IMG/VR virus record: IMGVR_UViG_2778261538_000003
Length of the DNA stretch: 42,281 bases
From: a virus
Lineage: Duplodnaviria; Heunggongvirae; Uroviricota; Caudoviricetes
Strand: one strand, 5' to 3'
The position numbers and the translations under genes are program-made. The notes under the pieces are model-generated. The model searched no databases. It was not told the DNA's origin and worked only from the letters and a program-made list of their open reading frames with translations. Positions 28,591 through 36,284 of the stretch are shown piece by piece (the stretch's first letter is position 1; every line of letters starts with the position of its first letter).

Positions 28591-28731
28591 ATTTAAGTCT
28601 CCACTTTCGTCTATAGCGCAAATTTATACGAAAACGGATTATTCAGCAATACGGCAATTCTATATCATCCTGGATTAAAATATCCGATAACGCATAATCA
28701 CCGTCCCTGTATACAACATGGATGAATCCAA

Positions 28732-29406
28732 ATGATTGATACTACCGATATCCTTTCTCAAAACATCAAGTACCTGATGGACAAAGCCAAGATAAGCTCG
28801 ATAACTGAGCTGGCACGTCGGTTACAACTGAACCAACCAACGCTACACAGGCTGGTATCAGGAGAGGTGAAAGATCCGAAATACGCAACGTTAAAGCAGA
28901 TCGCCGACTACTTCCACGTGTCACCAATAGACCTGGCAGAAAGGAGCCTTCAAGAAATGGAGAAAGAGGACGCGACGGGTATAAAAACGTATATTTCTCT
29001 TAGGTTTAATAAAGTACCTGTTTTGGGAAACACTCAGCTAGGCGTTGGAGGACTTTGGAGCGACACCCAATATTCAGTAGGTAGCAGTGATGGTTTCATA
29101 TACTGGCCGACAAAGGATGAAGATGCATACGCCCTGAAATGTGTTGGTGATTCAATGATGCCTAGAATCAAAGAGGGTGAGTTCGTAATCGTCGAACCCA
29201 ACCACGACTACACTCCTGGTGATGAAGTACTTGTGGTTACCCGGGACGGTGAGGTCATGGTTAAAACCTTCTTGTTCGAACGCGATGGCCTGTTCCATCT
29301 AATGTCTGTAAATGAAGATCATCCACCAGTCAGAGTACCACGCGAAAACATTGAAAAAATCCATTACGTGGCGGGGATCGCCAAATCCGCGCTACGCATG
29401 TACTAA
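28732..29406 (+). CDS. CI-like repressor (N-terminal HTH, C-terminal LexA/S24 autopeptidase domain)
   Basis: HTH near the N-terminus; S24 Ser/Lys dyad context CVGDSMMPRI ... VMVKTF. Confidence 0.9.
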   Translation: MIDTTDILSQNIKYLMDKAKISSITELARRLQLNQPTLHRLVSGEVKDPKYATLKQIADYFHVSPIDLAERSLQEMEKEDATGIKTYISLRFNKVPVLGNTQLGVGGLWSDTQYSVGSSDGFIYWPTKDEDAYALKCVGDSMMPRIKEGEFVIVEPNHDYTPGDEVLVVTRDGEVMVKTFLFERDGLFHLMSVNEDHPPVRVPRENIEKIHYVAGIAKSALRMY

Positions 29407-29436
29407 CCTTTACAGTCTGATAACTTACTTCTGATC

Positions 29437-29469
29437 AAACCGCTCTCCACAAGGGCGGTTTTCTTATTT
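29437..29469 (+). terminator. rho-independent terminator downstream of the CI-like gene
   Basis: AAACCGCTC-tccacaag-GGCGGTTTT followed by CTTATTT on the plus strand. Confidence 0.5.
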
Positions 29470-29490
29470 GCAAAATAATTCATTTTCGTA

Positions 29491-29519
29491 TTGACGCAAA
29501 ATCCCATAACGCATATAAA
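29491..29519 (+). promoter_or_regulatory. near-consensus sigma70 promoter (TTGACG - 17 bp - TATAAA)
   Basis: -35 at 29491-29496, -10 at 29514-29519; points into an ORF-free region; the spacer contains the 10-mer ATAACGCATA also found upstream of the CI-like gene. Confidence 0.5.
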
Positions 29520-29781
29520 TACGATGCCGCATAATTAATGCGTTTTTTAATACCAGCTCTTTAACAAACTGAACCGCGTGACAGGTAAGCCGCAGTACTC
29601 CTGGCAAAATGAAATGGCACCCGATGGGATCGAGGTAAGCGCCGAGTCCGTATGCGTACGGTAAGCGTAGAGGACAACACCGCGACGAACTGATAAGTCA
29701 CGCAAGTTGAAACGCCCCGACGATGGGGCGCTTAGTTCCTTTAACTCTGGGTGGCCGGAAGGGTACCCATGCTTAAAGAAA

Positions 29782-30351
29782 TTACTGGTTGTAAGGATCG
29801 TAATCCGTGATTGCCTTCCCCGGATTTTCATCTTCAGCAGGCAGTCTGGCCTCTAAAGCATTTCGGTTGAACAGATAGGAAGCCCTACAGTGCGAACAAA
29901 CCATATTAACGGCTCGCCCAAGGCCTGGCTTAATAACCAGACCTTCCGCTTGCAATATAGATTTTCTCTTTTGCTCGTAGCAATTGGGACAAATATAAAC
30001 CGGAGATTGGTCAGTATCTGCAGAAAGCTTGCTGCGATAGACCAGAGTACCCCGCATAGGCTGGTAAAGTTCATAGCTCGCCGCTTCAGCGGCCCAGTTC
30101 TCTTGCTTTACTTTCTCATTTTCCAGTTCAACAATTTTCTCCTTAGCCGCAATCAGCAGCTCCTGAAGCGACATTTGCTGCATCTGAACATCCATTAGCT
30201 TATCGAGTAAGGTGTGCGTCTTCTCTTTAACTGCATAGTCGACAGTCAGATTCTGAATCTCTCTTGCTGCTCCAACCGCGCCTTTAATTGCTCCTCCCAC
30301 GCCGGATAACGATTCAGTTATCCGGGAAAGAATTCCTTTTTCTTCAGACAT
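29782..30351 (-). CDS. hypothetical coiled-coil protein with C-terminal CxxC...CxxC zinc ribbon
   Basis: 189 aa; ATG with GAGAG upstream; CPNCYEQ...CSHCRA; transcribed opposite to both the CI-like gene and the early-left operon. Confidence 0.5.
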   Translation of the reverse strand: MSEEKGILSRITESLSGVGGAIKGAVGAAREIQNLTVDYAVKEKTHTLLDKLMDVQMQQMSLQELLIAAKEKIVELENEKVKQENWAAEAASYELYQPMRGTLVYRSKLSADTDQSPVYICPNCYEQKRKSILQAEGLVIKPGLGRAVNMVCSHCRASYLFNRNALEARLPAEDENPGKAITDYDPYNQ

Positions 30352-30481
30352 ATCTAATCTCTCTCAAACTGTAGGGGTGAAGAGATATTAGACGATTTCT
30401 CACTGTAGGGGTACAAGGAGAACCACCTCGCCTGATGTGGTTAAAAGCAGGCACTCGATGATATCCATGTAATTGCTGTGT

Positions 30482-30507
30482 GTAGTCTTTGCCCGCCGCA
30501 AATGACG
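30482..30507 (+). terminator. rho-independent terminator preceding the early-left operon
   Basis: GCCCG-ccgcaaatga-CGGGC followed by TTTTTT on the plus strand. Confidence 0.6.
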
Positions 30508-30554
30508 GGCTTTTTTATGTCTGAAAGCGCACTCGCAACAGCGCGCTCCCCGAT

Positions 30555-30725
30555 ATGAAAAAAGGAATACAACCGATGAAACCTGAACACCTCTATCGAC
30601 TGACGGGGCGCGATGTTCTCCGTTATCGCCGTAAAAACTTCGATTTGATGACCGGTCTGGCCGTTGCCACTGCGCTCGGTCTGATCATCACTTTCATTCT
30701 CCTTGTAGCGAGGACCACAGTATGA
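30555..30725 (+). CDS. small membrane protein (56 aa), translationally coupled to the next gene
   Basis: Hand-translated [56 protein letters not shown]; its stop overlaps the downstream start (ATGA); below the ORF-track size cutoff. Confidence 0.3.
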   Translation: MKKGIQPMKPEHLYRLTGRDVLRYRRKNFDLMTGLAVATALGLIITFILLVARTTV

Positions 30726-34220: not shown

Positions 34221-36284
34221 ATGTCCAATATACTATGGGGCGACCTGGAAACCTATTGCGAAATCCCTATTACGAACGGTACCCATGCGTATGCCGAAGG
34301 CGTTGAAGTGATGCTTTTCGCATGGGCTATCAACGACGGGCCAGTAAACGTGTGGGATATCACTGCCGGTGGTGGTATTCCACACGGCTTATACGAAGCA
34401 ATCGCAGACCCTGAAACCCTGCTTTATTTCCATAACTCTCACTTCGACCGCACCGTTCTGCGTTATGCAATGCCGCGACTGGCACCGCCAGTCGAACGTT
34501 GGCGCGACACGATGGTGCAGGCGCTGGCGCACGGTCTCCCGGGGTCTCTGGGGGAACTCTGCGAAGTACTAGGCGTCCCGCAAGACAAAGCGAAGGACAA
34601 AGAAGGTAAAGCGCTGATCCAGCTGTTCTGTAAGCCACGTCCGAAAAACAGCAAACTGCGTCGGGCCACCAGTAAAACCCATCCGGAAGAATGGCGGCGC
34701 TTTGTTGCTTACGCCGGACTGGATATCGAAGCAATGCGTGAAGTCTATAAACGTCTGCCGAAGTGGAATTATCAGGGGACAGAGCTGGCGCTCTGGCATC
34801 GTGATCAGCAGATCAACGACCGGGGCGTCTGCATGGACATGCAACTCGCGCGCGCTGCGATCGAAGCGGTAGACCAGGAGCAAAAGCGCCTGGCAAAGCG
34901 TACACAGGAAATGACTGATGGCGAAGTGCAGGCAGCCACACAACGGGACGCGTTGATTAAGCACATCGTTGAATCCTACGGTGTGGAGCTACCAGACATG
35001 CAACGCAGTACCCTGGAACGTCGTATGGCCGACCCCGATTTATCATCTGCCGTGAAAGAACTGCTGGCTATCCGCCTGCAAGCCAGTACTACCAGCACCA
35101 GTAAATACAAGGCACTGATGAAAGGCGTAAGCCACGACGGGCGCTTACGCGGTACGCTACAGTTCTGCGGGGCGTCACGTACCGGTCGTTGGGCCGGACG
35201 GCTATTCCAGCCCCAGAACCTTCCCCGCCCTTCACTAAAACAGGAACAAATAGACGAAGGCATCGAAGCACTGAAAGCCGGATGTGCAGACCTGCTGTTT
35301 GACAATATCATGGAACTAACCAGTTCAGCGTTACGTGGCTGCATTATCGCGCCAACAGGCAAAAAACTAGTGGTAAGTGACTTGTCAAACATTGAAGGCC
35401 GTATGCTGGCATGGCTGGCGGGAGAAGAATGGAAACTGAATGCATTCAGAGAGTATGACGCTGGAACGGGTCCGGACTTATATAAACTGGCGTATGCAAA
35501 AGCTTTCGATATTGCACCAGATGATGTTGATAAACACATGCGTCAGATCGGTAAAGTCATGGAACTCGGTCTGGGTTATGGAGGTGGTGTATCGGCTTTC
35601 ATCACTTTTGCTCTGGTTTACGGTCTCGATCTCGACGAGCTGGCGAACGCCGCACTGCCAAACATTCCCCGCGATGTTATCCGCGAGGCAAAAAGCTGGT
35701 ACGACGAATCGGTTAAGCGTAAGTCGACCTTTGGCCTGTCCGAGCGTGTATTCATCGCATGTGACTCGCTCAAGCGCCTGTGGCGCAGGGCGCACCCGGC
35801 GACCTGCGATTTCTGGTACGAGCTGGAGCGCACTGTCCGCACAGCAATCGCCACACCGCAAAAAACATTGTATTGCGGCTATCTTAAAATCCGACGTGAT
35901 GGCGCGTGGCTGCGCATACAGCTACCATCCGGACGCGCTGTATGCTACCCGTCTCCGGTTATCGAACAAGGGAATATCACCTACATGGGTGTTAACTCTT
36001 ATTCGCGTAAATGGCAACGACTCAAAACCTACGGCGGAAAGCTGGTGGAGAACGTCACCCAGGCGGCCGCCCGCGACGTTCTAGCCAGAAACATGCCGCT
36101 GATCGAGGGTGCCGGTTACAGCATTGTGCTAACGGTACACGACGAGGTGATCACCGAAGCACCAGACACAGAAGATTTCAACGATAAAGCGCTTTCCGCG
36201 CTTCTCTCCACTAACCCCGAATGGGCACCCGATATTCCGCTGAACGCTGGCGGCTTTGAGGCGTACCACTACAAAAAAGATTGA
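34221..36284 (+). CDS. family A DNA polymerase with 3'-5' proofreading exonuclease domain
   Basis: Exo I DLETY; motif [11 protein letters not shown]; motif [13 protein letters not shown]; motif C VHDEV. Confidence 0.92.

Follow-up and report, generated by a model that had tools for sequence, protein, structure and literature searches.

The segment at 30349-30462 of the 42,281-nt phage sequence analysed here (the window) is probably a minus-strand promoter of the PsieB type, driving a cargo gene, combined with a plus-strand cis-antisense RNA of the sas type; a module of the RprA type adjoins it. Positions 30349-30454 resemble the segment found just upstream of sieB in lambda, P22, HK620 and other phages, at 81-88% identity and in 154 phage records: lambda 34395-34499 is 81.3% identical over 105 nt, P22 is 86.2% identical over 86 nt (window 30369-30454) and HK446 is 83.9% identical. 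In all of the matching phages, the plus strand of the window corresponds to the pL direction. An antisense RNA of P22, sas, was reportedly described together with the promoter PsieB by Ranade and Poteete in 1993, and the 'P sieB' annotated in P22-pbi (AF527608 29690-29720) aligns position for position to window 30385-30415. The RNA itself has recently appeared as 'P22A-sas', a 127-nt species in a 2026 small-RNA-seq study, in which it is treated as a known antisense regulator of sieB, and in which P22 sas was both abundant and exported in vesicles (PMC13397905). The P22A-sas sequence from that study is identical to a stretch of P22 DNA that begins at the sieB start codon and takes in both CUGUAGGGGU hairpins and the pseudoknot, although the P22 coordinates given with it fall on unrelated genes in the P22 RefSeq/TPA records, the numbering being different. 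Given this homology, the annotated P sieB and the P22A-sas sequence, the two-hairpin element can be identified as the sas/PsieB module. On sequence grounds, the hairpins are a member of the sas family that has a new target and has been delivered as a cassette.

The block begins at the CAT of the 189-aa gene, is antisense to the 5' UTR and start codon of that gene and overlaps its promoter; it is situated within the early-left transcription unit, with the likely early promoter upstream on the plus strand. Using the P22 promoter as a guide, the cargo mRNA is expected to start near 30378, which places one copy of the repeated motif described below at the predicted +1 and the other in the promoter spacer, beside the -35 hexamer. 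A consensus promoter scanner did not call the PsieB-type promoter, which scores below its threshold, and no part of the window matches Rfam at the gathering threshold. Of 5426 complete E. coli genomes, 1157 (21%), K-12 included, carry a module of the sas type, which has never been annotated there. The block in E. coli K-12 MG1655 is 84% identical over 91 nt, and presumably lies upstream of sieB in the Rac prophage. The lambda RNA PreS/LPR1 was considered as an equivalent and rejected on its position, between ea10 and ral at tL2a.

Table 1. Positions, strands and defining sequences of the features discussed in the text
Feature	Positions	Strand	Description
Likely early (pL-type) promoter	29491-29519	+	TTGACG, 17-nt spacer, TATAAA; read by eye
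rrn/P22-type boxA	29556-29567	+	GCUCUUUAACAA, ~30 nt past the predicted transcription start
Structured leader RNA	29576-29730	+	~155 nt long, following boxA; conservation and compensatory changes
Inserted cassette	29743-30462		Cargo gene, PsieB-type promoter/sas block and pseudoknot
189-aa cargo gene	29782-30351	-	From the ORF listing; predicted antisense target
Hairpin 1	30353-30392	+	Arms TCTAATCTCTCT / AGAGATATTAGA; 16-nt loop CAAACTGTAGGGGTGA with motif copy 1 (30368-30378)
PsieB-type cargo promoter	30387-30415	-	-35 TGTACC (30415-30410), 17-nt spacer, -10 TCTAAT (30392-30387)
Hairpin 2	30397-30422	+	Stem TTCTC/GAGAA (30397-30401 / 30418-30422); loop ACTGTAGGGGTACAAG with motif copy 2 (30402-30412)
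Interleaved helices	30421-30452	+	S1 AACCAC 30421-30426 / GTGGTT 30437-30442; S2 GCCTG 30430-30434 / CAGGC 30448-30452
RprA-type seed	30471-30494	+	AAUUGCUGUGUGUAGUCUUUGCCC, 24/24 nt identical to chromosomal RprA
Intrinsic terminator	30491-30516	+	GCCCG 30491-30495 / CGGGC 30506-30510, 10-nt loop, T6 30511-30516

A reading made from the sequence alone had described two similar stem-loops that each display the same 11-mer. Both exact copies of ACTGTAGGGGT are indeed found in the hairpin loops, and no further exact copy exists in the 42-kb window; the second stem is just as that reading gave it, whereas the first is real but had been drawn too short, its 12-nt arms (30353-30364 and 30381-30392) pairing at 11 of 12 positions in an inverted-repeat search; the hairpin is also present in the minimum free energy fold. 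An 11-mer repeated within 50 nt is expected by chance approximately 0.5 times per 42 kb, hence a single window is insufficient, and the reality of the repeat has to be decided by conservation. The two-copy arrangement, with a spacing of 33-36 nt, recurs among phage contigs, where more than 50 distinct sequence variants show it. When 100 distinct upstream regions were gathered through the downstream S1/S2 element alone, 55 contained a direct repeat of at least 8 nt at this spacing, compared to 2.4% of shuffles. The relatives fall into at least five loop-motif classes (CTGTAGGGGT, GTTGTTGGGGA, TTGACTGTGGAA, TTGCATTGGGG and TTGTGGGGG), in all of which the two copies of one element are alike in every case, and the motif always adjoins the start codon of a different opposite-strand gene. 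In the window, hairpin 1 is complementary to the cargo mRNA in two places, its loop to the predicted 5' end and its 5' arm to the Shine-Dalgarno region.

The stem around the first copy is retained while its sequence changes, with ACTCT/AGAGT in P22, TCTCTTA/TAAGAGG in HK446, 11 bp in the relative L159 and 8 bp in L201; it was found in every relative, as 29 different stems. The register of hairpin 1 shifts between phages, and it was therefore tested per sequence only, which gave a mean of 5.4 Watson-Crick pairs against 4.1 in flank shuffles, a modest enrichment. An unbiased per-sequence test of both hairpins, tolerating G-U and A-C pairs, likewise showed modest enrichment and did not distinguish the strands. 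An imperfect third copy, ACTGTAGGGCT, matching the motif at 10 of 11 positions, is found on the minus strand at window 29881-29891, in sense orientation close to the 3' end of the 189-aa mRNA; its complementarity to the predicted 5' end of this same mRNA may be due to chance.

Covariation among relatives, which the sequence-only reading had proposed as a check, supports hairpin 2 and the two interleaved helices, and does so on the plus strand. S1 and S2, the linker of which is A-rich (AAAAG), are compatible with an H-type pseudoknot whose third loop is A-rich or, alternatively, with two mutually exclusive hairpins. Pairs were counted for hairpin 2, S1 and S2 in an alignment (A3) of 18 diverse relatives, where 94.8% of cells are paired, as opposed to 27-54% when the partners are slid; double changes occur in four pairs, and this level was reached by none of 500 shuffles. 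Hairpin 2 by itself (helix 57-61/76-80 of A3) is 96.6% paired, with one double change as well as changes from U-A to U-G. All of the one-sided changes produce G-U pairs when read in the plus orientation, which implies that the RNA is the plus strand. As the per-sequence test carries no strand signal, this strand assignment rests on the aligned helices.

A search for the best pseudoknot in each of 26 variants returned 8.5-13 bp, relative to a shuffle mean of 2.4, with 10 bp being reached by 1.5% of shuffles. The S1-S2 topology is present in 25 of the 26 variants, the exception being L097, despite their differing sequences: compensatory variants of S1 include CCACG/CGTGG, TCACG/CGTGA and AACCTCA/TGAGGTT, and those of S2 include GCCGGG/CCCGGC and GCCTGA/TCAGGC. 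An earlier MAFFT alignment (A2) positioned the 3' arm of S2 wrongly in variants with a longer linker, and the structure search and A3 were used in its place. Single-sequence folding of window 30346-30516 is unremarkable for the plus strand (z=-0.5) and better than shuffles for the minus strand (z=-2.9), a strand preference opposite to that of the covariation.

The S1/S2 element also exists without the twin hairpins, in L145, L150, L164, L192 and L202, where it follows promoter-like sites bearing operator-like repeats at a distance of 15-60 nt; an RprA-type seed is located ~310 nt beyond it in L150, L202 and the relative L281. In relatives with a single hairpin (L138 9780-9850 and similar), the complement of the pseudoknot reads TTAACC-N16-TGgTATGCT, a weak extended -10 promoter directed toward the cargo gene, which scores 8 of 12 and falls below the threshold of the promoter scanner. 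It is a possibility that the pseudoknot DNA of these single-hairpin relatives is dual-purpose, serving as the cargo promoter too.

The gene that the block adjoins is not sieB. The 189-aa protein belongs to phrog_1244 (E=6e-40), a family of unknown function that includes HK446_037, and the gene at the corresponding place in HK446/HK620 is also phrog_1244; lambda SieB, by contrast, is assigned to a different family, phrog_6399. Neither Pfam nor PADLOC gave a match to the 189-aa protein. A sieB target containing an internal esc start, the basis of a translational switch, is thus not found here, and as the cargo is not SieB, a SieB/Esc switch cannot be assumed. However, the identity of the target characterises the target gene and not the RNA, which is therefore still classed as a member of the sas family.

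Sibling phages lack the block at this location. In L256, L269 and L312, window position ~29730 is joined to ~30448-30472 by only 26-50 nt, and in L242, L293, L306 and L314 a different small plus-strand gene occupies the same site. In the siblings, the leader runs nearly straight into the RprA-type module and the same operon, which makes the cargo gene and sas block an inserted cassette. The element lies between the minus-strand 189-aa gene and the plus-strand operon starting at 30555, the products of which are 56-aa and 300-aa proteins, a DUF2800 nuclease, an Enc34-type SSB and a DNA polymerase. Escherichia phage vB_EcoM-606R2 and prophages carried by 49 complete E. coli genomes are identical to the window.

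The block combines features shared with P22 and others that are not. As in P22, it is situated within the early-left transcript and directly against the start codon of an opposite-strand gene, contains the same two CUGUAGGGGU hairpins and the same downstream helices, and doubles as the promoter of the target gene. Unlike in P22, where SieB/Esc is targeted, the predicted target is a phrog_1244 protein; insertion as a cassette placed the block in a leader of the boxA type, and the window phage has no N/gp24 gene. Furthermore, the block is followed within 20 nt by an RprA-type terminator module, which is absent at the corresponding place in both P22 and lambda.

The likely early promoter is positioned downstream of the cI terminator, and was missed by the scanner because its -10 ends in A. 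An operator-like sequence, ATAACGCATA, is contained in its spacer; there are exactly two copies in the window, the other being in the cI/cro intergenic region at 28687-28696. More broadly, the operator-like words ATAACGCATA and CGCATAAT are common to 29491-29545 and the cI/cro intergenic region (28687-28700). The palindrome CGCATAATTAATGCG is found at 29528-29542 and, followed by a T6 run (29528-29548 in all), sits right at the predicted transcription start. The -10 sequence CATATAAAT is shared by the relatives L242, L256 and L314, which comprise two promoter/operator (immunity) types. A promoter for the early operon downstream of 30507, which the sequence-only reading had named as evidence against itself, is not borne out, no promoter-like site having been found from the terminator to the first ORF.

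Shortly after this promoter, the sequence GCUCUUUAACAA is identical to the rrn boxA-spacer sequence ugcucuuuaacaa (PMC2724277). The boxA (GCTCTTTAACAA) and the structured leader following it are conserved in approximately 50 variants, behind several immunity types. The leader is 86-96% identical in relatives with downstream genes that are only 69-76% identical. It is closed by a long-range helix, GCGUGAC 29576-29582 / GUCACGC 29697-29703, which is also present in the centroid fold, contains three GGUAAGC repeats and ends in a terminal hairpin at 29713-29730; two of its helices show compensatory changes, in L361 (UGUGUGAC/GUCACACA) and L349 (CCGUG/CACGG). The leader has no Rfam or tRNA match, and a tRNA/tmRNA scan of 29300-30700 was empty. 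This boxA leader, ~800 nt upstream of the hairpins, is likely to be an antitermination site, and is a candidate for a new type of processive antitermination site; read-through into the operon most likely originates from it, rather than from the two hairpins.

A strong terminator between the hairpins and the operon had been reported at 30482-30507. The terminator exists, but these coordinates are shifted: the hairpin occupies 30491-30510 and the U-run extends to 30516. It escaped the consensus scanner because of its 10-nt loop. The sequence leading into it is that of RprA, as the seed at 30471-30494, which takes in the start of the terminator stem, corresponds to the start of the processed 47-nt form of this small RNA. 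RprAproc, the last 47 nt of RprA, has regulatory activity of its own (PMC9262595). Its 3' domain, consisting of the seed AUUGCUGUGUGUAGUCUUUGCCC, terminator and U-tail, is present in the window as 24 of 24 identical nucleotides and an equivalent hairpin, while no similarity to the rpoS-pairing 5' half of RprA was found upstream of 30471. A permissive Rfam scan matched RprA (RF00034) with 50.2 bits (E=4e-5), which does not reach the gathering score of 70, only the 3' third aligning well. In 5424 of 5426 E. coli genomes, the annotated rprA ends in a sequence that matches window 30471-30516. The seed contains a 13-nt complement of the csgD 5' UTR segment ACUACACACAGCA, a segment situated just upstream of stem-loop SL1, in the region where RprA and McaS have been reported to bind (PMC4152358). 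No targets of the seed were found within the phage, and string searches of the literature with the seed and the 10-mer of the hairpin loops returned the P22 paper (PMC13397905) as their sole match.

The exact 17-mer seed is found in more than 120 phage contigs and in over 100 contexts, always followed by a terminator hairpin of variable sequence. The stem of this terminator covaries in 40 distinct relatives, with examples being GCCCGTC/GACGGGC, GCCCCTC/GAGGGGC and GCCTGTC/GACAGGC. The seed follows within 3 kb of the leader at 63 of the 66 leader-bearing loci, and has at most one mismatch in all but one of these 63, the exception having three. Among GenBank phage isolates, the module is rare, occurring in 13 records that include N4-like Erwinia phages. 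In the lytic N4-like Erwinia phages Ea9-2, Frozen, Rexella, Gutmeister and Tellus (H172-H178), there is a match of 47-49 nt at 85% identity inside an annotated hypothetical protein. At two loci (L272 2444-2499 and L287 7883-7938), the seed UUGCUGUGUGUAGUC is fused to a DicF-type body (Rfam DicF, 61.6 bits), which suggests that seeds may be swapped on sRNA scaffolds in prophage early operons.

As judged by these matches, the terminator and the single-stranded 24-nt seed leading into it are an unannotated phage sRNA module of the RprA/DicF type, forming part of the early-operon leader of this lineage, and probably yielding a trans-acting RNA of the Hfq type. It resembles RprA in the 24 of 24 nucleotides across the seed and stem start, and in the same hairpin-plus-U-tail design, but is transcribed here in a phage early leader, whereas RprA is transcribed from an Rcs-controlled promoter. 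DicF, an sRNA of the Qin prophage (RF00039), likewise ends in a terminator and is encoded close to where a repressor-controlled early operon begins in a lambdoid prophage, and some of the phage copies of the UUGCUGUGUGUAGUC seed are on a scaffold scored as DicF; unlike in DicF, however, the hairpin in the window is RprA-like. The RprA-type seed of the window also differs from the seed of DicF, UUUCUGGUGACG.

The arrangement of the block would allow an antisense shut-off of the cargo gene. In the lysogen, the PsieB-type promoter would drive expression of the 189-aa gene; upon induction or infection, the repressor-controlled early promoter (29491-29519) would fire, giving transcription antisense through the cargo gene and the block. 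The plus-strand RNA would fold such that hairpin 1 could pair with the cargo mRNA, through its loop at the first ~11 nt and through its 5' arm at the Shine-Dalgarno region, with hairpin 2 displaying the same 10-mer again and the compact pseudoknot coming next. Pairing between the loop and the 5' end would then spread over the ribosome-binding site, and cargo synthesis would be off during lytic growth. As there is no plus-strand promoter near the block, the RNA would have to originate ~830 nt upstream and be processed. This cis-antisense logic accounts for loop 1, while loop 2 and the pseudoknot are not needed by it.

By analogy, this suggests a loop-to-5'-end antisense mechanism like that of IS10 RNA-OUT/RNA-IN, where the loop of a stem-loop antisense RNA likewise complements the very 5' end of its target mRNA and the antisense gene overlaps the target promoter. 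There is no sequence relationship between the two, and in contrast to IS10 the element here has two loops of the same sequence as well as a pseudoknot, and its RNA would probably be cut from a long transcript instead of arising from a promoter of its own. More tentatively, the plus-strand RNA may possibly be a two-part regulator, in which the sas-type domain with its twin loops and pseudoknot is joined to a mimic of processed RprA that, after RNase E cleavage or termination, would bind Hfq and act on RprA/McaS targets of the host such as csgD.

Three other explanations of the hairpins can be weighed against a sas-type antisense RNA. It is extremely unlikely that they constitute a cis-acting signal, resembling HK022 put or a nut/boxB site, that carries polymerase through the terminator at 30491-30516, as the sequence-only reading had proposed from the presence of two similar stem-loops upstream of a strong terminator. 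The lack of an N-like ORF between the early promoter and the operon would accord with such a role, as would the operon having no promoter of its own after the terminator. However, the hairpins prove to be a homologue of P22 sas, and occur in the N-dependent phages lambda and P22, which use N/gp24 at nut sites, while being absent from HK022, the putL region of which shares neither motif nor helix with them; they are absent too from siblings that keep the same terminator and operon. Their 16-nt loops are not the pentaloops of boxB, and the loop sequence follows the 5' end of the neighbouring gene. A lambda-type nut site consists of a boxA, a short spacer and a 15-nt hairpin with a GNRA-like pentaloop. 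No such arrangement is present at the hairpins, which have no adjacent boxA; the only one is the perfect rrn-type boxA at 29556-29567, and it is this region, with its conserved RNA (29556-29730), that probably represents the nut-like element of the window phage. Being stem-loops in an early transcript upstream of terminators is the sole feature common to the hairpins and to HK022 put and lambda nut, and unlike put the hairpins are not promoter-proximal, but lie ~830 nt from the early promoter, inside an insertion.

The alternative that the 11-mers are DNA operators, at which a protein bound at the -35/spacer and the +1 regulates the cargo promoter, with the hairpins being incidental, is also unlikely, if less markedly so. 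Its premise of an overlap with the promoter of the 189-aa gene, suggested by the sequence-only reading, is upheld by the P sieB alignment, with copy 2 next to the -35 and copy 1 at the predicted +1, and operators might explain why the spacing is constant at 33-36 bp in every motif class and why the copies always match. Yet the stems covary, changing sequence while staying paired, and the wobble changes fit one strand, which would be meaningless for duplex DNA; an abundant P22 RNA spans both copies, and one motif is used with unrelated cargo (SieB and phrog_1244) by phages whose repressors and N proteins differ, with no co-varying binding protein apparent. Similarly, there is little likelihood that the RNA is mainly trans-acting or a decoy, its twin G-rich loops and pseudoknot binding a host or phage protein or RNA and the antisense overlap being secondary. 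The dispensability of loop 2 and the pseudoknot for simple cis-antisense pairing points in this direction, as do the abundance and vesicle export of P22 sas (PMC13397905) and the pseudoknot modules that, without hairpins, directly follow early promoters in L145 and L150. Against this, the loop motif varies from element to element, matching the predicted 5' end of the adjacent gene, which argues for a local target, and the window contains no complementary site elsewhere save for a single 10/11 match inside the cargo ORF. The sas-type antisense RNA, overlapping a PsieB-type promoter, is hence the preferred interpretation.

On this interpretation, the sas block appears to be a portable cassette, combining a promoter with an antisense shut-off, for different genes expressed by prophages. 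Its specificity appears to be set by the 10-mer shown twice in the hairpin loops, a readable code that is directly testable in what is a 30-year-old and barely studied antisense system. The early operon of this phage group begins with an rrn-type boxA and a conserved RNA that has not been described previously. The terminator provides evidence for the presence of the host RprA seed in the early transcripts of many temperate phages and of some lytic Erwinia phages, which represents another phage route into the Hfq network, beside PreS, DicF and StxS. If the two-part regulator were to be correct, then the RprA seed module would be among the most widespread of phage-encoded sRNA seeds, found on both RprA-like and DicF-like scaffolds, and prophage induction would reprogramme the biofilm and envelope regulation of the host.
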